A stretch of DNA of 64,000 nucleotides, taken from Dehalococcoidia bacterium UBA6803. Lineage in GTDB: Bacteria; Chloroflexota; Dehalococcoidia; GIF9; AB-539-J10. Positions 5,977 through 60,329 of this stretch are shown in pieces. Position numbers and translations under genes: made by a program. The notes under the pieces were generated by a model. It was not told the origin of the DNA. It searched no databases and worked only from the letters and a program-made list of their open reading frames with translations. How positions within the stretch are numbered: the stretch's first letter is position 1; the number at the start of each line of letters is the position of its first letter. The DNA lies in contig DKFF01000008.1 of NCBI GenBank assembly GCA_002452795.1, forward strand, positions 18,271 through 82,270, written 5' to 3'.

Positions 5977-5986
5977 GATCCTCCCT

Positions 5987-8127: not shown

Positions 8128-8206
8128 GCAGCTTTACCGGCCAGTTGCGCATGGGATACCCCTCACCATAACGTATTGACCTGATCGGCTTATGTCAATA
8201 CCGGGA

Positions 8207-12599: not shown

Positions 12600-12661
12600 C
12601 TAAAATCTCACAGCGACATAAACTTATTAAGTACAATCCTCAGGTTCAGGAGTAAGAAGAC

Positions 12662-13363: not shown

Positions 13364-13440
13364 CATTTCAAATAGCGCTATAGTTGGGGCCAACCGCTTC
13401 TACGCCAGTTGGCCCTTTTTTTGTCACGCGGGCGGTCATA

Positions 13441-20289: not shown

Positions 20290-22134
20290 CTATCGTAGGG
20301 TAGGGAGGTTTCCTTGTTCTTTTTTTGCCCGCACCAATTTTTCCCGGCAGGGAAGTTGCCAGCGCTGTAATCCACAGGCATTGCAGTGCTCATGGTCACA
20401 GGTCGGAGTTTCTTTCCCCTGTCGCAACTTGAAGTATTCTTCCTTCAGGAAAGAGGAAGTTACCCCTGTGTCAATATGCGCCCAGGGCAATAATTCCTCC
20501 AGGTCTCGTTCCCGGTTGGCATAAAAGGAGATGTCAAGCTCACATCGAGCAAAGGCAGCTTCCCACTTGTGGAAAGAAAAGAGTTCCCGCCATGCGTCAA
20601 ATTTGCATCCTTCTTGCCATGCTTGGTGAATAACCTTGCCCAAGCGACGGTCTCCCCTGGACAGGGCTGCCTCTATGCGGCATGCCTCCAGATTGGGCCA
20701 GGACAGCTTCACCTTTCGTTTGCGCAATGATTCTTTTAAAACGTCAAGCTTGGGAAGTAGCAGTTCCTCGGTTTCTTGTGCCAACCACTGGCAAGCAGTG
20801 TGAGGCTTGGGTATCAGAACGGAAGTGCCTATACGCAGCTGTGGTTTTTTCTGCAGGTGAAGTATGGCCTCTGCCAGCGTGGCGATGCTTCGGACATCCT
20901 CCATGGTCTCGGAAGGAAGCCCCAGCATAAAATAAAGCTTGAATTTTTTCCATCCGTCTCCTACAAGAGTGGCCAGGGCATCTAGAATGGCTTTATCGGT
21001 AAGATTTTTGTTGATGACTTTACGCAGCCTTTCGTTACCTGCCTCAGGGGCAAAAGTTAAGGTCATTTTGCGTTGTGATGAAGATAGCAAACTGGATATT
21101 TCTGGGGAGATCATGTCCAGGCGCAGGCTGGGGAGAGAGAAGGAAAGATTGTTGCTGTAATGTTGCTGGATAAGCCTGGAAACGAGGCATGTGATTTCAG
21201 GGTAATCCAGGACGCTGAAAGAGAGCAGCGACAATTCGCTGTAGCCACAGTTTTTCAGCAGGGCATTTGTAGCCGCCAAGATCTCTTCTTGGGGGCGCTT
21301 TCTCTCAGGTCGGTATAGTGTGCTTGCCTGGCAGAAACGGCAGCCACGATTACAGCCTCTCTGAATTTCTATAACGCCGCGGTCGTGGACTGTTTCTATG
21401 TAGGGAACCACAGGTTTGACAACAGGAGAAGGCAGATTGTTAACCAGTCTGCGCTTGATCTTGGGCTTGGCCTCGGGAACTAGGGGAAGAAAAGCCTCCA
21501 AGGTACCGTCAGCGTAATATTTCACCTGGTAGAAGGAAGGAACATAGATGCCGTCTATAGTAGCTGCTTGACGCAACAAAGAGGTCTTGTTGCCACTATG
21601 CAGCCGGAAAGCGTCCAGTAATTCCAGAATTACCTCTTCTCCCTCCCCGATTACGAAGAGATCAATAAAATTTGCCATAGGCTCAGGGTTGCAAGAGCAA
21701 CAGCCGCCGGCGATTATCAGAGGAGAAGAGGCAGTCCTCTGGGAGGCTAGCAGGGGGATTTGAGCTAGGTTCAACATGTTCAGGCAGTTGGTATAAGTAA
21801 GTTCGTATCCCAAGGAAAATCCGACGATATCGAAGTTTTTCAAGGGATGGCGTGTTTCCAGGCTGAAGAGAGGAAGTTTTTCCCTGCGCATGATGTTTTC
21901 CATATCTATCCAGGGAGCAAATACTCTTTCTGCTAAAATGTCTGGCTCTCTGTTTAGGATGTCGTAAAGAATAGTTATAGCCAGATTGGACATGCCTATC
22001 TCGTAGATTTCAGGGTAACACAGGGCGACTTTGATATTGATGGAACGCCAGTCCTTGCTAATGCTGTTCCATTCACCTCCTGTATAGCGGGCTGGCTTGG
22101 TAACACGGTTCAGTATATAGTTCAAGGAAGACAT
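20290..22134 (-). CDS. B12-binding-domain radical SAM protein (TIGR03960-like with fused C-terminal domain)
   Basis: Start at MSSLNYILNRVTKPARYTGGEWN (ATG 22132-22134); CNRGCRFC radical SAM motif; C-terminal CDHEHCNACG. Confidence 0.7.
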   Translation of the reverse strand: MSSLNYILNRVTKPARYTGGEWNSISKDWRSINIKVALCYPEIYEIGMSNLAITILYDILNREPDILAERVFAPWIDMENIMRREKLPLFSLETRHPLKNFDIVGFSLGYELTYTNCLNMLNLAQIPLLASQRTASSPLIIAGGCCSCNPEPMANFIDLFVIGEGEEVILELLDAFRLHSGNKTSLLRQAATIDGIYVPSFYQVKYYADGTLEAFLPLVPEAKPKIKRRLVNNLPSPVVKPVVPYIETVHDRGVIEIQRGCNRGCRFCQASTLYRPERKRPQEEILAATNALLKNCGYSELSLLSFSVLDYPEITCLVSRLIQQHYSNNLSFSLPSLRLDMISPEISSLLSSSQRKMTLTFAPEAGNERLRKVINKNLTDKAILDALATLVGDGWKKFKLYFMLGLPSETMEDVRSIATLAEAILHLQKKPQLRIGTSVLIPKPHTACQWLAQETEELLLPKLDVLKESLRKRKVKLSWPNLEACRIEAALSRGDRRLGKVIHQAWQEGCKFDAWRELFSFHKWEAAFARCELDISFYANRERDLEELLPWAHIDTGVTSSFLKEEYFKLRQGKETPTCDHEHCNACGLQRWQLPCREKLVRAKKEQGNLPTLR

Positions 22135-22386
22135 CCTGCTATTATACCTGCAGGGTACCATCTCCTCAAGAGAATCAGGGTTATTAGGAAAAGGAGAGCA
22201 CAATTTGACAATCCTTAGTGCCTTGTGATAATTTCTTATCCTGTCGCTTGCCGAAACGGAAGAGCCGTGGTTTTATGAACTCCTGCCTGAGGTGTTTCGC
22301 GGACAGAAGAGGTTTTGAATAAGGCAGGATGGGGAAAGCTGGCGGCTTTTTAATTGTCCGGAAGCAAAACGAGGAGACAAAAGATA

Positions 22387-42639: not shown

Positions 42640-43779
42640 TTAAGTTTTTATCCCGACGGTGATTTCTGTGCCTTTGCCCGGTTGCGATTTTATGGAGAAG
42701 GTGCCGCCGAGCAAGCGGGCTCGCTCCTGCATGCCGATCAGTCCCAGCTTGCCTTTGCTGGCAAATCCACCTGCCACTTCAGGCACCTTGAATCCTCTGC
42801 CGTTGTCGGCAATGGTCAAGTTGACTTTATCGGGAGCAAACTCGACCTTAACCAGTACCTCCGTTGCCATGGCATGTTTCCTGACGTTGCGCAGTGCTTC
42901 CTGGGCGATGCGGAATAAGGCCAGTTCGATCTCCGGTGGCAGGCGATAACTAGAACCGGTTGTCTCAAAACGTGTATTAATCTCTTTTTCTTCATTGTGA
43001 AATTTGTTTGTTAGGTTTACCAAAATTGGCGTTAGTCCCAGTTGGTCCAAGTCACCAGGGCGAAGTTCTTGTGCAAAGAAGCGAGCTTTTTTTGCTGTAT
43101 TGTTGATATTGCTTTGGAGTTGTTCCAATTGGGAAAAGATTTTCTCCGGTGCAAACTCTCTGTTTCCGATTAGCATGTCGATCTTCAAAGATATGGTTGT
43201 CAATTCTTGGAGGAAGGTGTCGTGTAACTCGCGAGCAATATACTTCCTTTCCCCCTCTTGGGCGCGGGTGATTTCTGCGAGGTAGAATTGCATATTCTCC
43301 TGCCTTTGTCGCTGCTCGGTTATATCTCTGGCTGTAGTCATAATGCCTATTATTTGCTCATTTTTCTTTATCAAAGAGGGTGCGGACTCGGTGATCATTT
43401 TTTCGCCGTTCTTTCTGAAGATCTCATATTCGTAGTAGCATTGCTTAATGCACCGATCCCTAAGCCATTTCTGTTGCTCTTTCATGAGGGATTCAAAGCT
43501 TTTCGGGGAGAGAAGGCGTGATACGTGTAGCCCGACCAGTTCTTCGGCCGTATTGTAGCCGAAGAGATCTACTGCTCGTTGGTTGACTGCAAGAATCATT
43601 CCCTCAAGGGTGCGAATGAAAATGACATAATTGGTTTGAGTGAAAATGCTTGAGTAGAGAGCCTTCGTAGTCGTGAGGAGCTTGCTCTTTCTTTGTAGTT
43701 CTTTCTGGAGGTGAAATATTTCTACAAGAGCCCTCTTTTTGCTGATTCTCCTGTTGGGTTTGAAAAAGTTAGTCCTCAT
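42640..43779 (-). CDS. cytoplasmic PAS-domain sensor histidine kinase (HisKA_3 / NarX-type)
   Basis: 379 aa; no TM segments; PAS region, H-box ARELHDTFLQ, HATPase_c with DNGRGF and G-box. Confidence 0.8.
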   Translation of the reverse strand: MRTNFFKPNRRISKKRALVEIFHLQKELQRKSKLLTTTKALYSSIFTQTNYVIFIRTLEGMILAVNQRAVDLFGYNTAEELVGLHVSRLLSPKSFESLMKEQQKWLRDRCIKQCYYEYEIFRKNGEKMITESAPSLIKKNEQIIGIMTTARDITEQRQRQENMQFYLAEITRAQEGERKYIARELHDTFLQELTTISLKIDMLIGNREFAPEKIFSQLEQLQSNINNTAKKARFFAQELRPGDLDQLGLTPILVNLTNKFHNEEKEINTRFETTGSSYRLPPEIELALFRIAQEALRNVRKHAMATEVLVKVEFAPDKVNLTIADNGRGFKVPEVAGGFASKGKLGLIGMQERARLLGGTFSIKSQPGKGTEITVGIKT

Positions 43780-44449
43780 GTTCGGTTACTTTAAAAATAT
43801 CGTCGAGTGCCAGCCAATTTTCTTTTAAGGCGTAAAGCACAGCCTCGGTGCGAGATCCGACTTTTAATTTTTTGAAAGTGTTTACCATGTGAGTTTGAAC
43901 AGTGCGTTCACTGATCACAAACTCCTCGGCGATTTCCCTGTTGGTTAACCCGCCACCTGCCAGTTTAAGTATTTCTAACTCGCGTGGAGACAATATCACG
44001 GATTTTTGTCCGGTTTTGGTAGCATTAACCACTAACTGATGTACGATTTGGCTGGCGGATTGAAAAGAAAACACCGCTTCTCCTGCATACACCATGCGGA
44101 TGGCATCGGTTAGCTTATTTATAGGAGAATTCTTTAACAAATATCCTGCTACTCCCGCCTCTAAAGAAGCTGAAATATATGACGCGTAGTTATAAGCGGT
44201 GAGTATGATGATAGCTGTCCTCGGACAAAATATTTTAATCTGCCGGGCGGCTTCGATGCCGCCAACGACAGGCATAGAAACATCGAGGATGACCACATCT
44301 GGCAACAGCTCCGTTGTTAAGCTGATTGCTTCTTCGGCAGTGGTTGTCTTTGCTACTATAAGTAAGTCCGCCTCTTTTTCTAGAAGAAGAGACAGTCCTT
44401 CTAAGACCAAAGTGTGGTCATCCGCTAAGAGAACTTTAATTTTCTCCAT
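43769..44449 (-). CDS. NarL/LuxR-family response regulator
   Basis: Start MEKIKVLLADDH (ATG 44447-44449, AAGGGG RBS); receiver domain plus LuxR HTH; overlaps the kinase gene by 11 nt. Confidence 0.8.
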   Translation of the reverse strand: MEKIKVLLADDHTLVLEGLSLLLEKEADLLIVAKTTTAEEAISLTTELLPDVVILDVSMPVVGGIEAARQIKIFCPRTAIIILTAYNYASYISASLEAGVAGYLLKNSPINKLTDAIRMVYAGEAVFSFQSASQIVHQLVVNATKTGQKSVILSPRELEILKLAGGGLTNREIAEEFVISERTVQTHMVNTFKKLKVGSRTEAVLYALKENWLALDDIFKVTEHED

Positions 44450-45015
44450 AATCAAGCCCCTTTTTGCTGAAGAATATGAACAAACTTTGCGGGAGGTTAA
44501 GTCTATTTCCATTGTAACATATGTTGTTTGAAGGTTTGCCTTCGAGTCGTTTGTGACGTCCAATTGTTAATTTATGCTTTGTATAGGGCAAGGTAGTGCC
44601 AGAAGGGGAGGGTGTTAATGCTACTGCTTGTTCAGGTTATGCGTGGACACAAGAGTTGATAGAGGCAGTGACCGAATGTGAGGTAGGGGAGGCCTTGGGC
44701 GAAGCATATGCTTCTCATGGCATGATATCGGTTGGTATATTATCATGGGGGATGCCAATCTGGCTGTGTTTAATTTATCTGTATTTGTTATGAGGTTGTA
44801 TGTATCGTGGTAAGTAGTTTTCTGGAGGTGGAAATACGTAGTTTGTCTGATATGAAGATTGTATTTGAGAGGATATACTTAAGTTGCTAATAAGAGGTGG
44901 TATCTGCGGGCGGTTATTTGGGTTATAAGAGATTTGGGCCCGGAGAGGAAACTGAAGATGTGTTGTGCATTTGAGTCGAGAGAATTTTAACGTAGAGAAG
45001 TTAAAGGAGGTAAAA

Positions 45016-47628
45016 ATGGCAACAGCAGTGGAAAAAATAATGAAAATGAACGAGAAAGAGGAAGGGAAGGAGTATTTACTGGACCCGGAGGAGGCGGGGG
45101 TAAAGCTGGATACCCCAGGTGAACCTACAAGTAAGGCATGGGCAGTTGTTACTCCGGAGATGTGGAAATTCAGGTTCTCAGTCGCAGACAAGATACAAGT
45201 TGATGAGCCGGATTATTTCGCTGATAAGGATGCCTATACAGATATGGGGCCGTTCATGGCAATGAAGGAAGCCTGTGACGAGAATCCGGAGGCTACAGTT
45301 GCGCGTATAGTTGCTGTGGCATTCGCAAAATCTCTTGACCGTCAACGTCTGCCAATTAGGCCATACGAGATGGTCATTGGCTTGTATTCCAGTGATGAGC
45401 ACGGCATGCCGGGAGATCCGCAAAAGCAGAACTGGCAGCAATTGGTGGCGAACTTTAAGAACGCGCCGGAAAGGATGATGTACTGGAAAGGTGACGAAAA
45501 AGTCAGGCTTTCCAAACAGGAGATGGATGAGCTCACAGCAAAGATAGGCAATAAATTTAATGCAGTGTCAAGAGTTGTTGGCAAACTGACGCCTGAAGAG
45601 CAGCACCTGTACTTTTGTCCTGAAGCTCCCGGGAGATACTTTGAAGCGTTTGGCTCTGTACAGCGTGCCAGTGCCGACCATGGCTGGTATATGAGGCTGG
45701 GCTGGAGAAAACTGGTAGAGATGAAGAAGGAGAAGCTGGGGGAGTACGAGAAGGAATTTGAGCGTGTCAAATTAGCTGAGCCACTTGACTATCACAAGAC
45801 TGATGAGATACAGGACAGGATTGATAACGCTAAAGCTAGCATCCTGGTTGGTGAGGCGGTCATCAGGTGGATAAAGAGGTGGGCAGAGGCAGCGAGGAAA
45901 GCTGCCCCTCAGATGCCCGACGAGAAGTCAAAATGGATAGCCGAACAGGCAGCAGCGAATTGTGATTGGGTCGCGGAGAACGCGCCCCGCACCTTCTGGG
46001 AAGCCGTGCAGATGTTCTGGCTTAGCTATTGTGTTTTTCGTGGTTTAGAATCCTGCCACCCTGGTGCATTCAAGCCGGATGATCTTTTATGGGAATGGTA
46101 TGAACGCGACGTGGTAAAAGAGAAAACGCTGGACAGGACTACAGCGGGCGAGATAATAGCTTGTTGGGCAGCTAAGTACCACGAAACGGCCGGATTTGGG
46201 CCTGCGAGGTTTGGTGGCTTGGGCAAGTCAGCTCAGGGAACCAGAGACTATACGGTCTGGACGATTGGTGGGCAGGATGGGCATGGTTGTGACGCCACGA
46301 ATGAGCTTACTCGTTTAATCCTGGATGTCTGGGACGGATACAGACTTCATTTTCCCGACCTTAAATTCAGATGGCACCCTGCGACTAAAAGGGACGATTT
46401 TAGAAGAGTCGTTGAGGTAGCCAGAACAGGATTGGGGCTTCCCTCTCTGCGGAACGATCCAATGGCCATTGAGACTCTTTTGAGCCAGTATCCGGGAGAG
46501 TTGACCCTGGAGCAGGCGAGACAGTGGGGAATCGTAGGCTGCAATACGCCGGGATGTATTGTTGATTCCAAAGGGCCTGTCAGGCGGGAGGTTTCTTATG
46601 CGGACATTGAGAAGGCGCCGGAATTCGCGCTCTTCAATGGCAGAGACCCGGAGCCGGGGTTCGAGTGGGTTAAGTCGATAGAGACCGGAGACCCCACCAA
46701 GTTTAAGGATTTTGAGGAGTTTTACCAGGCCTGGCTCAGGCAGTATGAATGGTTCGTGACCATGGAACTCAGGTACCGAAACAGGTTTCTTGAGGAACTG
46801 GAAAAGACAAACAAAATGCCGTTTGTAAGCCTTCTGTATAAATGCTGCATGGAATCAGGGCTGGATGCGCTTCAAGACCCTGCCATAGCAAGATTTAGTT
46901 TTCAGAGCATAGTCGGCTGGGTGGATTCGATAGATAGCCTCATAGGGGTGAAATACTGGGTTTACGATAAGAAGAAGTACACTATGGAGCAACTCCTGAA
47001 GGCATTGAAAGCTGACTGGGTAGGCTATGAGGACATGAGGCGGGATTTCCGGAACGCGCCCAAGTTCGGGAACGATGATGACTATGCCGATGAAATAATG
47101 GCAAGGGCAACCGACGACGTCTTTATAGTGCACAAGACAAAGACTCTGGACAGGAGAGGTTACCCGGTCTACCCCAATCAGCTTCCCGTAAGCCGTATGT
47201 TTCAGTCTGCTCCCATGGTAGGGGCATTGCCTAACGGGAGAAAGCGCGGTGACCAGCTGTGTGATGGAGGGATTAACCCTCATGCCGATTTTGATAAAGC
47301 CGGGCTCTGGGGAAGGATGAGGTCAGCCCTAAAGGTTGATCAAGGTAAAGCCAGGGCGTACATTTACAATCAGAGGGTTGATTATTCCTCGGTGGCAGGT
47401 GAGGTTGGTCTGGCTAAGTTTGCGGATTATTGCTGGGACAGCCTTGCGCAGGGGCAGACTCAGATGCAGTTCAACTTTGTCTCGACTGAAGTGTTGCGGG
47501 ATGCGCAGAAGAGTCCGGAGAAATATCCCTATCTTACGGTAAGGGTATCCGGCTATAATGCCTTCTTTACCGGGCTGCCTGTCTTTATGCAGAATGCGGT
47601 GGCAAGCCGCGTAGAGCAGAAATTGTAG
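45016..47628 (+). CDS. glycyl radical enzyme, uncharacterized subfamily (870 aa)
   Basis: ATG at 45016 with AAGGAGG RBS; C-terminal glycyl-radical motif RVSGYNAFF; Cys loop VGCNTPGCIV; PFL-fold conserved blocks throughout. Confidence 0.85.
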   Translation: MATAVEKIMKMNEKEEGKEYLLDPEEAGVKLDTPGEPTSKAWAVVTPEMWKFRFSVADKIQVDEPDYFADKDAYTDMGPFMAMKEACDENPEATVARIVAVAFAKSLDRQRLPIRPYEMVIGLYSSDEHGMPGDPQKQNWQQLVANFKNAPERMMYWKGDEKVRLSKQEMDELTAKIGNKFNAVSRVVGKLTPEEQHLYFCPEAPGRYFEAFGSVQRASADHGWYMRLGWRKLVEMKKEKLGEYEKEFERVKLAEPLDYHKTDEIQDRIDNAKASILVGEAVIRWIKRWAEAARKAAPQMPDEKSKWIAEQAAANCDWVAENAPRTFWEAVQMFWLSYCVFRGLESCHPGAFKPDDLLWEWYERDVVKEKTLDRTTAGEIIACWAAKYHETAGFGPARFGGLGKSAQGTRDYTVWTIGGQDGHGCDATNELTRLILDVWDGYRLHFPDLKFRWHPATKRDDFRRVVEVARTGLGLPSLRNDPMAIETLLSQYPGELTLEQARQWGIVGCNTPGCIVDSKGPVRREVSYADIEKAPEFALFNGRDPEPGFEWVKSIETGDPTKFKDFEEFYQAWLRQYEWFVTMELRYRNRFLEELEKTNKMPFVSLLYKCCMESGLDALQDPAIARFSFQSIVGWVDSIDSLIGVKYWVYDKKKYTMEQLLKALKADWVGYEDMRRDFRNAPKFGNDDDYADEIMARATDDVFIVHKTKTLDRRGYPVYPNQLPVSRMFQSAPMVGALPNGRKRGDQLCDGGINPHADFDKAGLWGRMRSALKVDQGKARAYIYNQRVDYSSVAGEVGLAKFADYCWDSLAQGQTQMQFNFVSTEVLRDAQKSPEKYPYLTVRVSGYNAFFTGLPVFMQNAVASRVEQKL

Positions 47629-47755: not shown

Positions 47756-48682
47756 ATGTCGATTGAGGCAATAATTAAGACTGTAGATGAGCATGCGGTT
47801 CATGATGGCCCGGGGGCGAGGGCGCTTGCTTTCATAAAGGGTTGCAACTTGCATTGTAAATGGTGTCAGAATCCGGAGCTCATAAAGTTTGAGCCCCAGA
47901 TATGGTTCCATAAAGCGTTTTGCAAAGGATGTGGTGTATGCGAAGCGGCATGTCCTGTTAAGGCTATTGATTTAAATGCAGACGCCATGCACAGAATTGA
48001 TAGAGAGAAGTGCCTGGGAATTGAATGCAGCAAGTGTGTTCGGGTATGTTCGTATAATGCATTGCAGACGGTTGGTGTTAAGATCACTGCCGAGGAACTC
48101 TGGAGGTGGCTGGCGAAGTATAAAAGTTTTTATCAGGGTTCAGGGGGAGGGATAACGCTCAGTGGCGGAGATCCTTTACATTCGCCGGATTTCTCGGCTG
48201 AGGTACTTGAGCTTTGTAAAAGGGACAATATACATACGGCTATTGAAACGAGTTTATATGCCAGTTACGACAATTTGTGGAAGGTGGCGAGGCACTGCGA
48301 CCTTATTCTGTGTGATATTAAGCACATGGACAGCAAAAAGCATAAAGAGGGGACGGGTGTATCCAACGAACTGATTCTTGAGAATCTTCAGCGGCTTAAT
48401 GCGGATTTTCCTGGCGAAATCGTGGTGCGGGTGCCACTGATTCCCGGATACAATGACGACGAAGAGAACATTCGCCAAACAGCGGAGTTTCTTTCTCCAC
48501 TGGAACGGGTAAAAGGGATAGACCTGTTGCCCTTCAATAATTTCCCCGTGACGAAATTCGAGGCGCTTGGTATAGACTGGGAGTATACGAACGTTCTCAG
48601 TCAAACGGACGAGCAGTTGAACAAGCTTCATGAAATAGTGAAACCTTATAAAGCTCATTGCACGGTAGGGGGGATGTGGTAG
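47756..48682 (+). CDS. glycyl radical enzyme activating enzyme (radical SAM, with two auxiliary ferredoxin-like [4Fe-4S] motifs)
   Basis: 308 aa; CNLHCKWC radical SAM motif; CKGCGVCEAACP and CLGIECSKCVRVC insert typical of non-PflA-type activases. Confidence 0.85.
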   Translation: MSIEAIIKTVDEHAVHDGPGARALAFIKGCNLHCKWCQNPELIKFEPQIWFHKAFCKGCGVCEAACPVKAIDLNADAMHRIDREKCLGIECSKCVRVCSYNALQTVGVKITAEELWRWLAKYKSFYQGSGGGITLSGGDPLHSPDFSAEVLELCKRDNIHTAIETSLYASYDNLWKVARHCDLILCDIKHMDSKKHKEGTGVSNELILENLQRLNADFPGEIVVRVPLIPGYNDDEENIRQTAEFLSPLERVKGIDLLPFNNFPVTKFEALGIDWEYTNVLSQTDEQLNKLHEIVKPYKAHCTVGGMW

Positions 48683-51233: not shown

Positions 51234-52421
51234 TTATAGTCCAGCGCTGGCTCTTAACGCTGCAACTCTATCTGTTTTCTCCCAGGGCAAATCAAGGTCT
51301 TCTCTGCCGAAGTGTCCATAAGCAGCGGTCTGCCTGTAAATGGGACGGCGCAGGTTCAATGTCCTGATGATTGCCTCGGGACGCAGATCGAAATGTTCAT
51401 TGATCAATCCAAGTATAGCCTCATCTGCTATTTTCCCTGTGTGGAAAGTTTCGACTGAGAGAGAAAGAGGGTGAGCTTTGCCAATGGTATAGGCAACCCG
51501 TATCTCGATGCGGTCAGCAATGCCTGCCGCCACTATGTTCTTGGCGATATACCTGGACATATAAGCGGCGCTACGGTCAACTTTCGTGGGATCTTTGCCG
51601 GAAAAAGCCCCGCCGCCATGATGGGCGGCGCTTCCATAAGAGTCAACGATGATTTTACGCCCGGTGAAGCCCGTATCGCTGACAGGCCCACCGATGACAA
51701 ATTGCCCGGTGCTGTTGATGAAAAATTCAGAACTGGAGTCCAGTAAATCAGCGGGGATGGCCTCTCTGATCACCTGCTTTATCAGGTCGTTTTCGATGGC
51801 GGCGTGATTTATTCCGGGGTCGTGTTGGGCGGCAATCACGACACGGGCAACTCTTTTAGGCTTGCCGTAGCAATACTCAATGGTTACCTGGGATTTGCCG
51901 TCAGGGCGCAGATATGGAACAATCCCCTCTTTTCTCACCAGGGCTAACCTTCGGCACAGTTTGTGTGCCAGGGAGATGGACAGGGGCATAAATTCCGGTG
52001 TGACGTTGTGCGCATAACCGACCATCATGCCCTGGTCGCCGGCACCTGTTTTGCTCAATTCGTCTTCCTGTTGACCGCCTTTCTTTTCCAGTGATTGGCT
52101 CACTCCCATATCTATGTCGGAAGATTGCTTCTTTAATGAAACGATTACGCCAACGGTACGATAGTCATAACCGTATTCTGGATTGGTGTAACCAGCATCC
52201 TTGATTACCTGTTTTACCACATCGGGGATATCCACATAACAGTTGCAGGAGATTTCTCCCAGGACTATCACCATGCCCAGTGTCACAGCTGTCTCGCAGG
52301 CGACGCGGGCGTAGGGGTCTTTTTCTAGCATGGCGTCCAGAATGGCGTCGGATATCTGGTCACAAAGCTTATCAGGATGTCCTTCAGTGACTGATTCCGA
52401 CGTGATTAAGCATGACTTCAT
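51234..52421 (-). CDS. metK: S-adenosylmethionine synthetase
   Basis: Start [18 protein letters not shown] (ATG 52419-52421); GHPDK and GAGDQG motifs. Confidence 0.9.
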
Positions 52422-52483
52422 TTCTTTAAAAGCGTCTTTGCAAGGTCCCGACATGATCATCCTCCTTGATTTATTATTTTATG

Positions 52484-53806
<1,323 letters not shown>

Positions 53807-53910: not shown

Positions 53911-54438
53911 TTACATCCCCAACATCGGGCGGCATTCCGGGCAAAAAAGCAGTTCTTTTCGGTCGGTATCTGCCAGACAGCCCGAGAAATGCATGATGCA
54001 CCCGGGATTGGTGCAATGAGCAAGTCCAAAAGTGTGCCCCAGTTCGTGCACTATTTCCTTGAGGGCTCTTTTCAAGAGGAGAACTTCATCCGGAGTAGAG
54101 CCGTAAAATTCCTCTCGCAGACGGCACAGGGAGACAATCGCTGTTCCTGTCGCCGGGCTGGCCTGTCCGAAAACGAAATTGAGTCCCCGTGTATAAAGGT
54201 CAATATCGGTTATGCCTACGGCCCGCGCTTCTTTCTCCCCTTCCCCAGGGGCATTTTCGAGCGAGGACAAGAGCATGGAAGAGGAGTACTGGTTTCTGTC
54301 AGGGACATAGAAAACGTCTATTTGCTTCGTGTTCTGTCGTATTTCTACGAGGCAGCCGAAAAACGCCGATAGATTGGAGCGGAGCGTCTCCATGATGTTG
54401 TCATTGATGGAGCCTATCTGTTCGAGAATGATTTTCAT
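53911..54438 (-). CDS. archaemetzincin-like zinc metalloprotease
   Basis: 175 aa; HELGHTFGLAHC plus C-terminal CPEC Cys4. Confidence 0.7.
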   Translation of the reverse strand: MKIILEQIGSINDNIMETLRSNLSAFFGCLVEIRQNTKQIDVFYVPDRNQYSSSMLLSSLENAPGEGEKEARAVGITDIDLYTRGLNFVFGQASPATGTAIVSLCRLREEFYGSTPDEVLLLKRALKEIVHELGHTFGLAHCTNPGCIMHFSGCLADTDRKELLFCPECRPMLGM

Positions 54439-54611
54439 TAAGTAACTTCCTTAAGAGAATGCCTCTGGTGTCGATATTAGCGGAATGCATGATCACCAAC
54501 AAAAGAACTTCAAGAATTTTATCAGCATCGGGCGCTTATTTCACTGCTGCTGTATAATATAGCGGGGTTATGAATAGAGGGTAAATATATTTTTACAAGG
54601 GGGTTTATGTT

Positions 54612-55406
54612 ATGGATTGGGGTATGGCAAATCGTATGGCACAATTAATCAAGGAGGATGGACGCTGTTTCTTCATGCCCATTGACCACGGGTATTTCCA
54701 GGGGCCAACGAGGAAACTGGAGGAACCTCGCAAGGCTCTGGAACCCCTTCTTCCCTATATTGATGCGGTTTTTGTGACCAGAGGAGTGCTGCGCACTTCA
54801 GTAGACCCCGCCGCTGCCAAGCCTGTTATTCTCAGGGTATCTGGCGGTACCAGCATGGTAGGGAAAGACCTGGCTCATGAAGGAACCACTACTTCCATGG
54901 AAGAGGCTATCCGCCTGAATGTGGCGGCGGTGGGGAACTCCATTTTTGTGGGTACTGATTATGAACATGATTCGCTGCTCAATTTGGCAAAGCTGGTTGA
55001 TGAAGGCAACCGCTACGGCATACCGGTGATGGCAACTACGGCGGTTGGCAAAGAGCTGGAGAAGAGAGATGCTCGTTACCTCGCCTTGTGTTGCCGCATC
55101 GCTGCCGAGTTGGGTGCCAGCGTGGTCAAAACCTACTGGTGTGAGAATTTTGAGAAAGTGGTGCAGGGGTGCCCCGTGCCTGTAGTTATGGCAGGTGGCC
55201 CCAAAGTGAGCACCGAGCTTGAGGTTTTCGAGTTTGTTCATGACGGGCTGCAGAACGGCGCTGTGGGAGTAAACCTGGGCAGAAATGTCTGGCAGAATGA
55301 TTATCCTGTGGCTATGGCTCGTGCCTTGCGCGCCATCATTCACGAAAACGCCTCGCCTCGCGAAGCGCAGGAGATATACGAGAGCATAAAGCAAGGGAGG
55401 GCGTAG
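54612..55406 (+). CDS. class I aldolase, DhnA/FbaB family (MJ0400-like: fructose-bisphosphate aldolase / ADH synthase group)
   Basis: 264 aa; colinear with the M. jannaschii MJ0400 sequence as recalled (PIDHG, VVKTYW, GCPVPVVMAGGPK, GVNLGRNVWQ). Confidence 0.75.
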   Translation: MDWGMANRMAQLIKEDGRCFFMPIDHGYFQGPTRKLEEPRKALEPLLPYIDAVFVTRGVLRTSVDPAAAKPVILRVSGGTSMVGKDLAHEGTTTSMEEAIRLNVAAVGNSIFVGTDYEHDSLLNLAKLVDEGNRYGIPVMATTAVGKELEKRDARYLALCCRIAAELGASVVKTYWCENFEKVVQGCPVPVVMAGGPKVSTELEVFEFVHDGLQNGAVGVNLGRNVWQNDYPVAMARALRAIIHENASPREAQEIYESIKQGRA

Positions 55407-55407
55407 T

Positions 55408-56463
55408 GTGAAGCAGGGGCAAATGATGCGGGTGGCTATGTGGTATAACAACCGCGACGTGCGGTTGGAAGAGATTCCTGTGCCTCAAATCGGCGCGGGA
55501 GAGCTTCTCGTGCGGGTGGAGGCCAGTGGCATTTGCGGCAGCGATGGGATGGAATGGTATCGCCTGCACAAGGCACCGCTGGTGCTGGGGCATGAAATAG
55601 CAGGTGTGGTCGTCGCTGTGGGAGAGGGAGAACGGCGTTATAGAGAAGGGGACAGGGTAACAGTGGCTCATCACGTGCCCTGTAACACCTGCCATTATTG
55701 CTTGAGTGGACATCACGGCGTCTGCGAAGCGCTTCTTTCTGAAACGCATTTTGACCCGGGCGGCTTCGCCGAGTACATCCGCGTGCCGGCGATTAATGCG
55801 GATAGAGGTGTGTTTCCGCTTCCTCAGGAGGTGTCTTTCGAGGAAGCCACTTTTGTAGAGCCGTTAGCTTGTGTTCTACGCGGTCAGAGGATGGCGCATC
55901 TGCGACCCGGTGGCAGTGTACTGGTCGTGGGTAGTGGTATTGCCGGGCTTTTACATGTCAAGCTGGCGCGTTCTCTGGGGGCGGGGTGCATTGTGGCCAC
56001 GGATGTTGTTGAGCACCGCTTGGCGGCAGCCAAAAAATTTGGCGCCAATGCTGTTTTTGCCGCGGGGGATTATACGCCTGAGTGTCTGCGAGGGGTTAAT
56101 AACGGCAGACTGGCTGACCTGGTAATAATATGTACAGGGGCAGTGGCAGCCGTAAAACAGGCACTGCAATCTGTGGACAGGGGCGGAACGGTGCTTTTCT
56201 TTGCCCCTGCGAATGAAGGAGATGCTGTTCCCCTGTCGATAAACGAGCTTTTCTGGCGCAAAGAAGTAACGCTTACCAGCAGTTATGCCGGGCCGCCAGC
56301 AGATTCCACATCGGCGCTAGAGCTACTTCGCTCGGGTAGCATTGATGTTCGTGAGATGATTACTCATCGCCTGGGGCTTGAGGAAACGGAAAAGGGCTTT
56401 TACCTTCTTGTCCACCCGCAAGAAGGGCAGGCAATCAAGGTAATTATCGAACCCCAGCGGTAG
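55408..56463 (+). CDS. zinc-dependent alcohol/polyol dehydrogenase (MDR superfamily)
   Basis: 351 aa; GICGSDG...GHEIAGVV catalytic-Zn motifs; structural-Zn Cys4 CNTCHYCLSGHHGVC; Rossmann GSGIAGL. Confidence 0.75.
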   Translation: MKQGQMMRVAMWYNNRDVRLEEIPVPQIGAGELLVRVEASGICGSDGMEWYRLHKAPLVLGHEIAGVVVAVGEGERRYREGDRVTVAHHVPCNTCHYCLSGHHGVCEALLSETHFDPGGFAEYIRVPAINADRGVFPLPQEVSFEEATFVEPLACVLRGQRMAHLRPGGSVLVVGSGIAGLLHVKLARSLGAGCIVATDVVEHRLAAAKKFGANAVFAAGDYTPECLRGVNNGRLADLVIICTGAVAAVKQALQSVDRGGTVLFFAPANEGDAVPLSINELFWRKEVTLTSSYAGPPADSTSALELLRSGSIDVREMITHRLGLEETEKGFYLLVHPQEGQAIKVIIEPQR

Positions 56464-56502
56464 AGGGCGTAAGCGCAGAGGTTGCTTTCGGCGGAGCGGT
56501 GG

Positions 56503-57366
56503 TTACTGCAGGTATTTTCCTAAAAGCAATTTCAGAGAATCCTTCGTTTCGCGCGAAATACTTTCCGGCGCGCTGGCGATAGCGTCTTTGAGTGCGTGTC
56601 CGCAGGCGCAGGTTCTCTCCGCTGGAATGTCATCGACTGCTGTCTTTAATATCTTCTTGGCCGTACCAATGCCTTTTTGCAGATTGCCGATAATCATCTC
56701 TGTGGTCACGGAATCGTGTCTGGGATGCCAGCAGTCAAAATCAGTAACAGAGGCGAGCGTGGCATAACAGATTTCCGCCTCCCGGGCCAACTTGGCCTCA
56801 GGAATGGCTGTCATGCCGATGATGCTGGCGCCCCAGGAGCGGTAAAGCTCCGATTCTGCCCTGGTGGAGTACTGAGGGCCCTCCATGGCCAGGTAAATGC
56901 CTCCTTCGTGGATGTTTGCTCCTGTGCGCCGGCCGGCCTGGGACAGCAGGTGGCTGAGGTCGGGACAGAAGGGGTCGGCGAAAGCGATATGCACCACGAT
57001 GCCGTCGGAGAAAAAGGTACTGTCTCTCCCTTTAGTGCGGTCAATAATCTGGTCTGGAACGACTATGTCCATGGGAGGAAGCTCTTCCTTGAGACTGCCC
57101 ACGGCACTCACTGAAATAATTCTCTCGACCCCTAGGGATTTTAAGGCATAGATGTTGGCTCGCACGGGCACCGCCGTTGGGTAAATGAAATGTCCTTTGC
57201 CGTGTCTGGGTAGAAAAGCGACAGCTTTCCCTTCCAGTTGTCCCAATGTTATGGCAGCGCTGGGCTTGCCGAAAGGGGTGTCTATGGTAACTTCTCTTAT
57301 TTCGCTCATCCCCTCTATCTGATCCAACCCGCTGCCGCCGATGATACCTATCTGTGCCTCTGCCAT
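56503..57366 (-). CDS. mtnP: S-methyl-5'-thioadenosine phosphorylase
   Basis: 287 aa PNP/MTAP family (IGIIGGSGL ...). Confidence 0.85.
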   Translation of the reverse strand: MAEAQIGIIGGSGLDQIEGMSEIREVTIDTPFGKPSAAITLGQLEGKAVAFLPRHGKGHFIYPTAVPVRANIYALKSLGVERIISVSAVGSLKEELPPMDIVVPDQIIDRTKGRDSTFFSDGIVVHIAFADPFCPDLSHLLSQAGRRTGANIHEGGIYLAMEGPQYSTRAESELYRSWGASIIGMTAIPEAKLAREAEICYATLASVTDFDCWHPRHDSVTTEMIIGNLQKGIGTAKKILKTAVDDIPAERTCACGHALKDAIASAPESISRETKDSLKLLLGKYLQ

Positions 57367-57469: not shown

Positions 57470-58090
57470 TCAGAGTGGCACTGGTAAATCCTTTATCTGA
57501 CATCCCTGGCATTCCTCTGGCAGGCTGAGATTTTCCAGGTGGAAATCCAGCTTCTTGAGGTCGCGTACCAAGGCGCAAAGAGGCAGCCCGACAACATTGA
57601 GGTAACAGCCTGCACAGGAGGCGACAGGACGGAAAGAGGAGTCCTGGATGGCGTATGCACCTGCCTTGTCCATCGCCTCTCCTGAAGCGATGTAGGTCAC
57701 TGCGTCACTCTTATTGTAGCGCCGCATAGTCACCCTGGTAATGCAGCAGGACGAAGCCAGTCTGCCTTGAAAGAGAGAAGCTATCGCGGTGATGACGAGA
57801 TGCTCCCGTCCGCGGAGAGCAAGAAGCATTGCCAGTGCCTCTTTTTCATCGGTGGGCTTGCCCCAAAATCTACCGTCAATGGCCACTGTTGTATCTGCGG
57901 ACACCACCACTCCCTCTCCTTTGCAGGATTGCGCCTTGCGGATAGCAAGATTGACCAGCGCCTCGGGTTTGTCCGAGCGCAGCGTTTCGTCCACCATGGG
58001 TGTAAAAATCGAGAAGGGGACACCCAGTGCCTTTATGAGCTCTCTTCTCCGTGGGGAGGCGGAAGCAAGGGTAAGATTATCTAATTTCAA
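57470..58090 (-). CDS. maf: Maf-like nucleoside-triphosphate pyrophosphatase
   Basis: TTG start giving MKLDNLTLASASPRRRELI; Maf fold motifs; start codon uncertain; overlaps upstream gene end. Confidence 0.7.
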   Translation of the reverse strand: MKLDNLTLASASPRRRELIKALGVPFSIFTPMVDETLRSDKPEALVNLAIRKAQSCKGEGVVVSADTTVAIDGRFWGKPTDEKEALAMLLALRGREHLVITAIASLFQGRLASSCCITRVTMRRYNKSDAVTYIASGEAMDKAGAYAIQDSSFRPVASCAGCYLNVVGLPLCALVRDLKKLDFHLENLSLPEECQGCQIKDLPVPL

Positions 58091-59243
58091 GGACGGTGAC
58101 ACACTCCATATGATAAGTATAAGGAAAAAGGTCCACTGGCTGCACCTCCGATACTTTGTACGTAGGCGAAAGAGCTTTGATGTCCCGCACCAGGGTGGTG
58201 AGGTTGCAGGATACATAAACAATTTTTGGGGGCAGGAGGGTTAAAAGAGCTCGGAGCATTTCTTCAAGACATCCTGCTCTGGGAGGGTCAAGAATCACCA
58301 CGTCGGGATGCTCCTCGGTCTCCTTCATGACTTCCTCCGCTTTCCCCTTAATGAGACGGACATTTTTCACCCCGTCCAGATTGCGCGCGGCGTCCTGGCA
58401 GGCGGCAGAGGATTCCTCCACGGCGATCACTTTTTCTGCCATGCCTGAGAAGGCTAGAGAAAAGGTGCCCACCCCGGCGTAGGAGTCAACCAGGAGATTG
58501 GATCCCTTGACCCACTGCCCCATAACCTCGATGATTTTTTCCGCGCCTTGCGTATTGACCTGGAAGAAAGAGGCGGCAGAAACCTGAAAGCGATGCCCTG
58601 AAAGAACCTCGTGGTAAAAAGATTGCCCCGTGGGAATACCAGCGGTCTTAATCTCGGGCTGAATGAGAACTTCGCCTGTGGCGCTGCCACACCTGATGCT
58701 CAAGTGGGCGGTTTCCGCGCAGCAGCCGCTGAGACTTTCCAGTGCGGCATTGATTTTCTTGTTCATGAGCAGGCAGGAAGTAACAGGTACAAAGTGACGG
58801 CTTTGCCTGTTCACGAATCCCGGGACGCCTTCTCTGACGGTGAAACGGGCATGGTTGCGGTAATACAGCGTTTCCGGAGAAGAGATTATGGGTAGAACGC
58901 GCTCTTCTTCTATGCCTGCTGGCAAAAGCGCCTCTTTTATTCCCAGGGATTTTATCTCTAGTTGCCGGGCGTAACTGACATGCTGCCACTGGCAGCCTGA
59001 GCATTCTCCAAAATAGGGGCAGAGAGGAAGGATGCGCTCCGGGGAGGGCGTGGATATCTCCAGTACGCGGCAGAAAGAGCGCCTTTTTCTACTGACAATT
59101 TCTATCGTTACTTCTTCGCCAGGCAGAGTGGTGGGGATGGGGGGCAACCCTCTCTCCCCTGCGGCAAGACCCTCTCCCAGATCGTTCAGGCCGTCGATCC
59201 TTACTTGCAGAAGCTCGCGGGTTTCCTTCGGCTCGTTTCTCAT
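58077..59243 (-). CDS. 23S rRNA (uracil-C5)-methyltransferase RlmD/RumA-like (TRAM + Fe-S + SAM MTase)
   Basis: 388 aa; CPYFGECSGCQWQH cluster; SAM-binding motifs. Confidence 0.8.
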   Translation of the reverse strand: MRNEPKETRELLQVRIDGLNDLGEGLAAGERGLPPIPTTLPGEEVTIEIVSRKRRSFCRVLEISTPSPERILPLCPYFGECSGCQWQHVSYARQLEIKSLGIKEALLPAGIEEERVLPIISSPETLYYRNHARFTVREGVPGFVNRQSRHFVPVTSCLLMNKKINAALESLSGCCAETAHLSIRCGSATGEVLIQPEIKTAGIPTGQSFYHEVLSGHRFQVSAASFFQVNTQGAEKIIEVMGQWVKGSNLLVDSYAGVGTFSLAFSGMAEKVIAVEESSAACQDAARNLDGVKNVRLIKGKAEEVMKETEEHPDVVILDPPRAGCLEEMLRALLTLLPPKIVYVSCNLTTLVRDIKALSPTYKVSEVQPVDLFPYTYHMECVTVLEIR

Positions 59244-59291: not shown

Positions 59292-60329
59292 TCAGGCGAG
59301 CGCTTTCCTCAAGCCCTCTGCATATGGCTCGTGAAGTACCCCTTTTTCGGTGACGATAGCGCTGATATAGCGATGCGGGGTAACATCAAAAGCCGGGTTT
59401 GCCGCCGCAATGCCTTCCGCAGCGACGCGTATTCCCTTGATGTGGGTTATCTCTTCAGGGGCGCGCTCCTCGATGGGGATTTCTGCCCCTGAAGCAAGAG
59501 AGAGGTCAATGGTGCTGGTGGGAGCGGCGATATAGAAGGGTATGTTGTTCTCGTGCGCCAGCACCGAAACGGTGTAAGTACCGATCTTGTTGGCGGCGTC
59601 TCCGTTAGCGGCAATCCTGTCTGCCCCGACCACGGCGCAGTTGATTTTGCCTCTGTTCATAAAATGTCCGACCATGGAATCAGTGATGAGAGTTACGGGG
59701 ATACCCATCTGTTTCAGCTCCCAGACGGTCAACCTGGCTCCCTGAAGGAGAGGGCGGGTCTCTGCGGAGAAGACCGTTATCTTCTTTCCTGTGTCATATG
59801 CCGCCTTGATGATGCCCAGAGCGGTGCCATATCCGGCAGTGGCCAGCGGGCCGGCGTTGCAATAGGTGAGCACGGTATCGCCGTGCCTGATAAGCTCTGC
59901 GCCCAACAGGCTGAGGCGCCCGGTGGCCTCTATTTCCTGTCTGTGAATCTCCTCCGCTTCTCTTACCAGGCGCTCCTTCAGTTCGCCAAAATTGCTTTCT
60001 GCCGCGGCTTTACGCATGCGGCCAATGGCGTGAAAAAGGTTGATGGCGGTGGGCCTGGTGGCGGCGAAATCGGCCATCACCTGGGTGAGCGCGTGGCGAA
60101 ACTCCTCCTCACTGTCTGTTTTTATGCCCAGTGCTCCCAGGGCGATACCATAAGCGGCGGCCACGCCGATGGTCGGCGCCCCTCTCACCTGCATCGTTTT
60201 GATAGCCAGAACTACATCGCGGTAGTCTGCTGTGTTTATAAAAGCCTGCTCATGGGGAAGCCTGCTCTGGTCAAGGATTCTTAAGCTATCTCCGAACCAT
60301 TCCAGCGCTTTTATGCCTGTTTCATCCAT
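59292..60329 (-). CDS. mtnA: S-methyl-5-thioribose-1-phosphate isomerase
   Basis: 345 aa eIF2B-like MtnA family. Confidence 0.85.
   Translation of the reverse strand: MDETGIKALEWFGDSLRILDQSRLPHEQAFINTADYRDVVLAIKTMQVRGAPTIGVAAAYGIALGALGIKTDSEEEFRHALTQVMADFAATRPTAINLFHAIGRMRKAAAESNFGELKERLVREAEEIHRQEIEATGRLSLLGAELIRHGDTVLTYCNAGPLATAGYGTALGIIKAAYDTGKKITVFSAETRPLLQGARLTVWELKQMGIPVTLITDSMVGHFMNRGKINCAVVGADRIAANGDAANKIGTYTVSVLAHENNIPFYIAAPTSTIDLSLASGAEIPIEERAPEEITHIKGIRVAAEGIAAANPAFDVTPHRYISAIVTEKGVLHEPYAEGLRKALA

Follow-up and report, generated by a model that had tools for sequence, protein, structure and literature searches.

A conserved LsrF-family lyase and its dehydrogenase partner, probably the sugar-cleaving end of 5'-deoxynucleoside salvage in Dehalococcoidia

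Two adjacent genes in a 64,000-nt (64-kb) stretch of DNA from Dehalococcoidia bacterium UBA6803 (contig DKFF01000008.1; the whole stretch is hereafter the window) probably encode, as judged from genomic evidence alone, the sugar-cleaving end of 5'-deoxynucleoside salvage. The genes, which we call ALD (264 aa) and ADH (351 aa), specify a predicted C-C lyase of the LsrF family and a predicted zinc-dependent dehydrogenase, and the window around them also carries MtnP, MtnA, MetK and AhcY. It seems rather likely that ALD and ADH process MtnA-derived ketose-1-phosphates to dihydroxyacetone phosphate (DHAP). Every radical S-adenosylmethionine (SAM) reaction produces 5'-deoxyadenosine, and to our knowledge it has not been established how the sugar of this by-product is disposed of in radical-SAM-rich anaerobes such as the Dehalococcoidia. 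When three Dehalococcoidia loci with a stand-alone MtnA were examined, no known downstream enzyme was found beside it. The conserved ALD-ADH module, which is operon-linked to MtnK and MtnA, to MtnP, to a deaminase for 5'-methylthioadenosine (MTA) or 5'-deoxyadenosine and to adenine salvage, is a candidate for the missing sugar-cleaving step.

Open reading frame (ORF) coordinates were taken from a six-frame ORF list of the window, and families were assigned by NCBIfam and Pfam profile searches. To compare loci, one genome per GTDB species was scanned, which gave 80 loci encoding ALD at 74-84% identity; neighboring genes were identified by tblastn and ORF clustering. Most of the loci come from metagenome-assembled genomes (MAGs), for which the naming of bins could be erroneous. 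Loci in which ALD had 5 kb or more of sequence on either side were called fully flanked (n = 37). An ADH ortholog (57-72% identity) was present in 50 of the approximately 80 loci, always on the same strand as ALD, downstream of it in 49 of the 50, and within 300 nt of it in 29; every other neighbor family was found in 14 loci or fewer. Among fully flanked loci, 28 of 37 had the ADH ortholog. Six of the remaining nine had a 690-aa fusion of a class II aldolase to a short-chain dehydrogenase/reductase (SDR), one had an FAD_binding_2 oxidoreductase 53 nt downstream of ALD, and two had nothing obvious. The fusion is RhaEW-like (TIGR02632, 727 bits vs a cut-off of 568) and was found in L027, L032, L043, L063, L066 and L072, plus a seventh locus, L080, that was identified by tblastn. 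It is located at about 10.8-12.9 kb in each locus (about 11.9-14.2 kb in L027), and lies 15-39 nt downstream of ALD in five loci and about 1.1 kb downstream, with another ORF intervening, in L027. Genes for Apt and an AtzE-like amidase lie nearby in most of the fusion loci (not L032; L080 was checked for Apt only). With ADH, the aldolase-SDR fusion or the FAD protein following it, ALD is hardly ever found without an oxidoreductase partner.

The module is also found outside the Dehalococcoidia, in Thermodesulfobacteriota-type loci with the order purH-purD-leuB-ALD-ADH, in Desulfotomaculum-like Firmicutes, and in bins labelled Methanolliviera and Hadarchaeum. In the Firmicutes lineage of loci L019 and L009, ADH is 88-100% identical within the lineage, and the drop to 68% identity with the next matches, which are from Chloroflexota, suggests that the module was transferred horizontally. 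ALD itself is 74-84% identical across the Dehalococcoidia, Thermodesulfobacteriota-type and Firmicutes loci and the archaeal bins. In the same loci MetK (54-72%) and AhcY (62-74%) are less conserved. The ALD clade evolves very slowly, with an identity of 77% among its members vs 43% among LsrFs.

The strongest link to salvage is the ALD-ADH-mtnK-mtnA operon, found in L050 (the same as metagenome contig L085) and in L086 and L087, where the four genes share one strand and no gap exceeds 50 nt. In L050 (6900-14186), seven genes lie on one strand, in the order fucose-isomerase-like gene, CoA-transferase A, CoA-transferase B, ALD, ADH, MtnK and MtnA, with gaps of 2-43 nt and a single larger gap of 158 nt before ALD. 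The MtnK and MtnA of L050 score above their cut-offs (513 bits vs 275 and 374 vs 279, respectively). L086 and L087, a lineage with 80% identity to L050 in MtnK, have ALD, a remnant of ADH, MtnK and MtnA. A second type of operon was found in the Firmicutes loci, which have sporulation genes: in L019 (9228-13247) and L009 (3872-8109), a FucA/DrdA-like class II aldolase, ALD, ADH and a deaminase are encoded in a row. The deaminase is nearest to the MTA/S-adenosylhomocysteine (SAH) deaminases (PDB 4f0r, 304 bits; TM0936, 270 bits; NCBIfam 5'-deoxyadenosine deaminase model, 403 bits), and the class II aldolase matches PDB 4c24 (133 bits) and 6btd (122 bits).

Other neighbors bear on the same metabolism. 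MtnP lies 0-4 kb from ADH in the window and in L018, and L094 has within 4 kb an MtnP-like gene of the PNP_UDP_1 family, a candidate ortholog. MetK and AhcY are upstream of ALD in the window, L005 and L094, and recur near ALD in L005, L025, L069 and L094. The arrangement in L025 is unlike the window's: ALD-ADH-Hpt-adenine deaminase has AhcY, MetK and PGM upstream of it, and all of these genes but AhcY are on one strand. Adenine deaminase is encoded downstream of ADH in six Dehalococcoidia loci, some labelled Dehalococcoidaceae; Hpt accompanies it in five of these (L025, L023, L038, L067 and L084), and a further phosphoribosyltransferase in five (L023, L038, L058, L067 and L084). Between them, these neighbors account for the base as well as the sugar of a 5'-deoxynucleoside. 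Finally, assembly GCA_013388845.1 encodes both MtnA (L101) and ALD-ADH (L053). Among the papers searched, none connected 5-deoxyribose, MTA salvage or Dehalococcoidia with LsrF or with a class I aldolase.

The neighbors leave some room for a substrate of another origin, such as ribulose-1-phosphate from nucleoside ribose, or fuculose- or rhamnulose-1-phosphate, in which case the link to SAM by-products would be only partial. Of the neighbors, Hpt, adenine deaminase, Apt, PurH and PurD act in purine metabolism at large, and the first gene of the L050 operon is fucose-isomerase-like. The fusion that can stand in for ADH passes the rhamnulose-1-phosphate aldolase/SDR model TIGR02632, and the class II aldolase of L019 also resembles ribulose-1-phosphate aldolase. 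We consider these substrates improbable given that MtnK and MtnA, enzymes with specificity for 5-substituted ribose, share an operon with the pair, that MtnP and the MTA/5'-deoxyadenosine deaminase are among the neighbors, and that no rhamnose or fucose kinase was seen adjoining the pair.

The sequence-only reading described ALD as an MJ0400-type aldolase. This label does not survive profile searches, in which the LsrF family scored best. ALD passes the LsrF equivalog NF006081 (3-hydroxy-5-phosphonooxypentane-2,4-dione thiolase) with 347.4 bits vs a cut-off of 297, and falls below the cut-offs of both models for MJ0400/AroA', the 2-amino-3,7-dideoxy-D-threo-hept-6-ulosonate (ADH) synthase (TIGR01949, 186.7 bits vs 299.45; NF005556, 192.9 vs 241). 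Among solved structures, ALD matched E. coli LsrF with 252 bits, MJ0400 with 141 and the Thermoproteus fructose-1,6-bisphosphate (FBP) aldolase with 93. Pfam places ALD in the DhnA/DeoC superfamily, and its 45% identity to E. coli LsrF (BLASTP), a solved structure, fixes the predicted fold.

The catalytic residues tell the same story. In LsrF, Lys203 forms the Schiff base, Asp57 and His58 have assigned roles, and Gly226, Gly227, Gly253 and Arg254 make up the phosphate site; the Tyr that is catalytic in class IA FBP aldolase and in MJ0400 is absent from LsrF (Diaz 2009, PMC2728841). The window's ALD and each of its 76 orthologs keep all of these LsrF residues. In MJ0400, the catalytic Tyr (MYPRGK, in the beta5-alpha5 loop) lies in an insertion that ALD is missing, with Ala in the aligned column in all orthologs, and the equivalent of the FBP aldolase Tyr146 is absent from ALD, as it is from LsrF. 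MJ0400/ADH synthase was rejected as the identity of ALD, with both models under their curated cut-offs and the catalytic Tyr absent. Because ALD is LsrF-type rather than MJ0400-type, the analogy that had been drawn with MJ0400's substrate, 6-deoxy-5-ketofructose-1-phosphate (DKFP), falls as well.

ALD also differs from LsrF. LsrF Asp251-Met252 is Asn-Leu in ALD and in each of the 76 orthologs examined; L050, L086 and L087 likewise have Asn for Asp251, and every other LsrF-like representative of a 50%-identity cluster has Asp. LsrF Lys228 is Pro in the ALD orthologs, and the 31-residue N-terminal swapped arm of LsrF is missing. A few ALD positions (GGP, Trp257) agree with the MJ0400 and FBP aldolase families and not with LsrF. 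In a neighbor-joining tree, the ALD clade and the clade of ALD plus LsrF were each recovered in 100 of 100 bootstraps. The LsrFs with Asp251 were not reliably monophyletic (38 of 100 bootstraps), so that Asp is probably the ancestral residue at this position and Asn the derived one. The Asp251 group is the true lsr-operon LsrF group, separate from the ALD clade, since among its members are chimeric gene calls in which LsrD or LsrB is joined with LsrF (P0148 and P0188). In a search for Rosetta-stone fusions of ALD, these two chimeras were the multi-domain matches and are uninformative on ALD. Because Asp251 and the lsr context are both missing, ALD is treated as a distinct subfamily of predicted Schiff-base enzymes within the LsrF family.

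The pipelines PGAP and JGI name relatives of ALD as LsrF, and ALD does pass the NCBIfam equivalog cut-off, as would be expected if it were a true LsrF that degrades phosphorylated autoinducer-2 (AI-2). No homolog of LsrK, LsrR, LsrB, LsrC or LsrD was found when the Lsr proteins of E. coli K-12 were used as tblastn queries against the window and about 100 related loci; the LsrA matches were generic ABC ATPases, and LsrG gave one weak match to an ABM domain. Further, the organism recycles SAH by AhcY, a route that yields no 4,5-dihydroxy-2,3-pentanedione (DPD), the N-terminal swapped segment is missing, Asp251 is Asn, and the true lsr-operon LsrFs form a separate group. As the LsrF homolog was the only lsr gene in the window and the loci, AI-2 processing was rejected; a role of this kind is highly improbable.

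The sequence-only reading had itself raised the alternative that ALD is the glycolytic FBP aldolase, FbaB. Membership in the DhnA/DeoC superfamily, the PGI/PMI, PGM and iPGM genes of the window, and the very high conservation of ALD would fit a glycolytic enzyme. The scores do not: ALD has 133 bits vs a cut-off of 430 on the class IA FBP aldolase model NF040816, and 57 vs 277 on the E. coli FbaB-type model NF006704. FBP aldolase IA was rejected as the identity of ALD, being under its curated cut-off and with the catalytic Tyr absent. A glycolytic role would also fail to explain why a dehydrogenase partner is conserved and why Mtn and purine genes lie nearby, and we regard it as very unlikely.

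The pair might instead work in a biosynthetic direction, with ALD catalyzing the condensation of DHAP and either acetyl-CoA or an aldehyde, and ADH reducing the product, e.g., 3-hydroxy-2,4-pentanedione-5-phosphate (P-HPD) to 1-deoxyxylulose-5-phosphate (DXP), or in a DKFP/ADH-synthase-type route to aromatic amino acids. ALD is more conserved than MetK and AhcY (74-84% vs 54-74%) and often lies among housekeeping genes, e.g., purH-purD-leuB; the ADH-synthase models are its second-best match; and, from chemistry only, reduction of P-HPD at the carbonyl beside CH2OP would give DXP. ALD is nevertheless under both ADH-synthase cut-offs and without that enzyme's Tyr, no 3-dehydroquinate (DHQ) synthase II (AroB') was recognized among the annotated recurrent neighbor clusters, and MtnK, MtnP, the deaminases and the phosphoribosyltransferases that neighbor the pair belong to salvage and catabolism. 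The Asp of ADH that indicates NAD would be untypical of a biosynthetic, NADPH-dependent reductase. A biosynthetic role is thus quite improbable.

ADH matches Pfam ADH_N and ADH_zinc_N. Its translation has the catalytic zinc ligands in GICGSD, GHE and EPLAC, a four-Cys structural zinc site, a Rossmann motif GSGIAG and, where beta2 ends, an Asp (ATD) that indicates NAD. The closest PDB entries are threonine 3-dehydrogenase (Tdh), sorbitol dehydrogenase, ketose reductase and galactitol-1-phosphate 5-dehydrogenase (GatD), enzymes that oxidize secondary alcohols of polyols and related compounds; the best solved relative is a Tdh (148 bits). ADH reached no specific NCBIfam equivalog cut-off, with 168 bits on the Tdh models vs the 380-458 required, and a comparison of its pocket with those of sorbitol and threonine dehydrogenases found only a Tdh-like His-His before the structural zinc lobe. 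A dehydrogenase of this type may act before, rather than after, C-C cleavage.

We consider, tentatively, a model in which ADH would oxidize C4 of 5-deoxyribulose-1-phosphate and the LsrF-like ALD would cleave the product. Going by their families, MtnP (or, in other lineages, MtnK) and MtnA would convert 5'-deoxyadenosine or MTA to 5-deoxy- or 5-methylthio-ribulose-1-phosphate. The NAD-dependent ADH would oxidize the C4 hydroxyl at the methyl-carbinol end of 5-deoxyribulose-1-phosphate, and the product would be CH3-CO-CHOH-CO-CH2OPO3, i.e., P-HPD. The structures, when written out, coincide: 4-dehydro-5-deoxyribulose-1-phosphate is constitutionally identical to P-HPD, the known substrate of LsrF. 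ALD would then form a Schiff base through Lys173 and cleave the beta-diketone to DHAP and an acetyl unit. If CoA is used as in LsrF, the acetyl unit would leave as acetyl-CoA, and MTA would give methylthioacetyl-CoA; alternatively, given the change of Asp251 to Asn, hydrolysis to the free acid is possible. Such a model accounts for the pairing of an LsrF relative with a secondary-alcohol-type dehydrogenase whose place may be taken by an SDR or a flavoprotein and is almost never empty, and for the missing aldolase Tyr. It also accounts for the strong constraint on ALD, in that a labile intermediate would be handed between two enzymes, as in Tdh and 2-amino-3-ketobutyrate CoA ligase (Kbl), and for occasional CoA-transferase or acetyl-CoA synthetase neighbors. 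CoA-transferase A and B are encoded directly upstream of ALD in L050 and downstream in L001, and an ADP-forming acetyl-CoA synthetase directly follows ADH in L028. The fullest form of the proposal is an oxidative, possibly CoA-dependent route for radical-SAM and polyamine by-products, in which a 5-deoxyribulose-1-phosphate 4-dehydrogenase would make P-HPD (or its methylthio analogue) and cleavage would give DHAP and acetyl-CoA with no free aldehyde, and in which LsrF would have been recruited from a widespread, probably older salvage enzyme for SAM by-products that acted on this compound already. This form we put forward only with considerable reserve.

Several observations weigh against the salvage role or the oxidative mechanism. 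Linkage to mtnP or mtnA is infrequent, at about 5 of 90 loci, and MtnA was stand-alone in the three other Dehalococcoidia genomes checked. (In two of these three MtnA is beside YebC-RuvC-RuvA, and in the third it is several kb from that block, which is neutral evidence.) The neighbors that handle CoA are few and could be there by chance, the CoA-transferase in only two independent cases. Asn replaces Asp251 and Pro replaces Lys228 in every ALD ortholog, which makes cleavage by CoA-dependent thiolysis uncertain. In L086 (941-1963) and L087 (6953-8011) ADH is a pseudogene, with in-frame stops, the GICGSD and GHE motifs lost and an internal deletion, and ALD, MtnK and MtnA are intact; an intact ALD beside a dead ADH is unexpected if ADH must act first. 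The ALD beside the pseudogene looks constrained, with a dN/dS of 0.13 from few substitutions, and for the pseudogene vs its neighbors there were too few substitutions to separate them. An IS/integrase fragment upstream in L087 hints that the operon may be decaying. Lastly, nine loci have, together with ALD, a class II aldolase, which the oxidative model does not require. The earlier claim that the pair works with mtnP and mtnA on ribulose-1-phosphates derived from MTA and 5'-deoxyadenosine is supported by the L050/L085 and L086/L087 operons, the deaminase operon and the purine-salvage, MetK and AhcY neighbors, and is qualified by the rarity of the linkage.

In a metagenome scan centered on MtnK, ALD-ADH was present in three of nine loci. 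No ALD, ADH or FucA-like gene was detected in the other six, where MtnK occurs in glycosidase and transporter contexts. A second type of MtnK-MtnA cluster occurs in L088-L093 (at about 5573-10315), with no ALD, ADH or FucA-like gene detected near it. In L088 and L090, the two that were checked, a 795-aa protein with no Pfam or NCBIfam match precedes MtnK-MtnA, and in L088 MtnK-MtnA sits among glycosidase, GPH-transporter and DhaL genes.

The main rival to the oxidative model, and a serious one, is the DHAP-shunt logic of the sequence-only reading, in which ALD would be a retro-aldolase that cleaves 5-deoxy- or 5-methylthio-ribulose-1-phosphate to DHAP and acetaldehyde or 2-(methylthio)acetaldehyde, and ADH would reduce the aldehyde. 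The same Mtn and purine-salvage linkage fits this order of events, and the known shunt does end in an aldehyde that is reduced by an alcohol dehydrogenase (PMC10986504). ADH is dispensable in L086 and L087 while ALD is kept, as would be expected if cleavage came first. Further, the change of Asp251 to Asn removes a residue that may serve the thiolase chemistry of LsrF, and ALD retains Asp57, which in class I aldolases is the general base. Set against these points, the catalytic Tyr of the related aldolases (Diaz 2009, PMC2728841) is missing from ALD, as is the LsrF Asp251, and the closest characterized relative of ALD is a thiolase and not an aldolase. The partner is of the polyol/threonine-dehydrogenase type, the FAD oxidoreductase that takes its place in one locus is an unlikely aldehyde reductase, and the E. 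coli shunt cluster mtnK-mtnA-ald2 lists no dedicated dehydrogenase (PMC10986504). A class II aldolase is present in the L019/L009 operon or fused to the partner in seven loci, and with retro-aldol cleavage by that enzyme ALD would be redundant. The proposal that a class I enzyme replaces the class II aldolase of the shunt is weakened by the same FucA/DrdA-like enzyme and fusions. The window itself gave no FucA-like class II aldolase by tblastn with FucA and the L019 aldolase, which is a weak test confined to the 64 kb. In sum, cleavage followed by reduction is somewhat unlikely, and oxidation followed by LsrF-type cleavage is the order that we prefer.

The positions of the window's genes (Table 1) bear out the earlier description, with ADH convergent to MtnP and MtnA about 2 kb further on. 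There are 39 nt between the stop codons of ADH and MtnP, and MtnA lies 1.9 kb past MtnP, with genes for Maf and an RlmD-like methyltransferase between. The 1-nt gap reported between the aldolase and the dehydrogenase holds if ADH starts at the GTG at 55408. The ATG at 55426, which would give a gap of 19 nt, is the more likely start because the orthologs begin at MRVAM. A purine-rich sequence resembling a ribosome-binding site (RBS) precedes both candidate starts, and whichever is used, ALD and ADH are likely co-transcribed. Upstream of ALD, a consensus promoter scan listed minus-strand sites only, and the plus-strand promoter in Table 1 is a candidate only. Also upstream, on the minus strand, are an archaemetzincin gene, AhcY, MetK, PGM/PMM and PGI/PMI; metK and ahcY, which had been called adjacent, are indeed on this side and are separated from the pair by the archaemetzincin gene.

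Table 1. Features of the window, in window coordinates
Feature	Position	Strand	Basis or remark
ALD: LsrF-family class I (Schiff-base) C-C lyase, DeoC/LacD-family	54612..55406	+	NF006081 347 bits, residue mapping, tree
ALD Lys173, predicted Schiff-base residue	55128-55130		Codon; Asp25/His26 of ALD = LsrF Asp57/His58
ALD Asn221	55272-55274		Codon; position of LsrF Asp251
ADH: NAD-type Zn-dependent medium-chain dehydrogenase, polyol/threonine-dehydrogenase subfamily	55408..56463	+	Pfam, PDB neighbors, motifs
MtnP: MTA (presumably also 5'-deoxyadenosine) phosphorylase	56503..57366	-	TIGR01694 321 bits vs cut-off 275
MtnA: isomerase of 5-methylthioribose-1-phosphate/5-deoxyribose-1-phosphate	59292..60329	-	TIGR00512 431 bits vs cut-off 279
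AhcY: S-adenosylhomocysteine hydrolase	52484..53788	-	TIGR00936 624 bits, passes curated cut-off
MetK: SAM synthetase	51234..52460	-	TIGR01034 544 bits, passes curated cut-off
Archaemetzincin-family metalloprotease gene	53911..54438	-	Between AhcY/MetK and ALD-ADH, divergent from ALD
ALD upstream intergenic region	54439..54611	+	TATAAT box at about 54553-54558; AAGGGGG RBS 5 nt before ATG; read from sequence
Maf ORF	57470-58222
RlmD-like methyltransferase gene	58077-59243
Flavin amine-oxidase/CrtI-family oxidoreductase, 509 aa	60382-61911	-	Directly downstream of MtnA, same strand
PFL-like glycyl-radical enzyme	44965-47628
Radical-SAM activase of the glycyl-radical enzyme	47756-48682
PAS histidine kinase and LuxR-type response regulator	42640-44563	-
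Large radical-SAM protein	20290-22203
gyrB	6208-8127	+
dnaA	10059-11423	-
gyrA	17758-20232	+

The archaemetzincin gene is also divergent from ALD in L005, L018 and L094. On the far side of the pair, the Maf ORF as called mechanically shares about 145 nt with the RlmD-like gene, at the latter's 3' end; the Pfam match of the Maf ORF begins at residue 50, and the real Maf start is probably internal, near 58078. The oxidoreductase encoded after MtnA scores under all specific carotenoid-enzyme cut-offs. Radical-SAM and glycyl-radical activase enzymes generate 5'-deoxyadenosine, and the window encodes a glycyl-radical enzyme with its activase, downstream of the divergently oriented kinase and response regulator genes, and a further large radical-SAM protein. 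The window also includes a probable replication origin among gyrB, dnaA and gyrA, where the cumulative GC skew, over positions 1-14000, has its minimum (at about 8-10 kb) and rises strongly after.

If the pair does act as proposed, with ADH first, the pathway would run via the exact substrate of LsrF and would yield acetyl-CoA instead of a toxic aldehyde, a new salvage chemistry. It would suggest that AI-2 degradation had its evolutionary origin in the salvage of SAM by-products, and the label "AI-2 thiolase" would be wrong for thousands of annotated proteins of Dehalococcoidia and other anaerobes. The current names "AI-2 thiolase/aldolase" and "sorbitol/L-iditol dehydrogenase" are probably wrong in very many MAGs. 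The DHAP shunt and the LsrF family were known; what would be new, from the genomic evidence, is an LsrF-type cleaving enzyme and a dedicated dehydrogenase tied to salvage.

Of the characterized systems, the closest to ALD is LsrF of the E. coli and Salmonella lsr operon (PDB 3GKF and 4P2V). The two are of one family, with ALD above the equivalog cut-off, and share the Schiff-base Lys, the Asp57/His58 pair, the Gly and Arg residues of the phosphate site, and the loss of the catalytic Tyr of the DhnA aldolases; if the proposed dehydrogenation occurs, they would share P-HPD as substrate too. ALD differs in having Asn-Leu for Asp251-Met252 and Pro for Lys228, and in lacking the N-terminal arm. Its loci are without lsrK, lsrG and lsrACDB, and its partner is a zinc dehydrogenase instead of the isomerase LsrG. 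The hosts of ALD appear, from taxonomy, to be anaerobes, and the window's organism has in AhcY an SAH-recycling route that yields no DPD.

In the DHAP shunt, MTA or 5'-deoxyadenosine is converted by MtnP (or MtnN and MtnK) and MtnA to a ribulose-1-phosphate derivative, which the class II aldolase Ald2 cleaves to DHAP and an aldehyde (PMC10986504). The window encodes MtnP and MtnA, DHAP would be the expected common product, and the L050 and L086 operons are laid out like mtnK-mtnA-ald2. Unlike the metal-dependent class II Ald2/DrdA of the shunt, ALD is a predicted class I LsrF-type enzyme with a dedicated dehydrogenase, its C2 product may be an acyl-CoA or an acid rather than an aldehyde, and some of its operons hold a class II aldolase as well. 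MJ0400/AroA' and the archaeal class IA FBP aldolases share with ALD the DhnA-type TIM barrel, the Lys/Asp pair and the phosphate site. They are only about 33% identical to it, ALD is under their curated cut-offs and without their catalytic Tyr, and no DHQ synthase II was seen among the annotated neighbor clusters. The RhaEW-type rhamnulose-1-phosphate aldolase/short-chain dehydrogenase (TIGR02632), which takes ADH's place after ALD in seven loci and is not present in the window, supplies a dehydrogenase domain together with a domain that binds a ketose-1-phosphate. For the chemistry proposed, the nearest analogy is Tdh and Kbl, in which a zinc-dependent medium-chain dehydrogenase oxidizes CH3-CHOH to a labile ketone and its partner cleaves the ketone with CoA to give acetyl-CoA. 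ADH is far under the Tdh cut-offs, Kbl is a pyridoxal phosphate enzyme whereas ALD is a predicted Schiff-base TIM barrel, and the substrate here would be a sugar phosphate; the likeness is that the closest solved relative of ADH is a Tdh.

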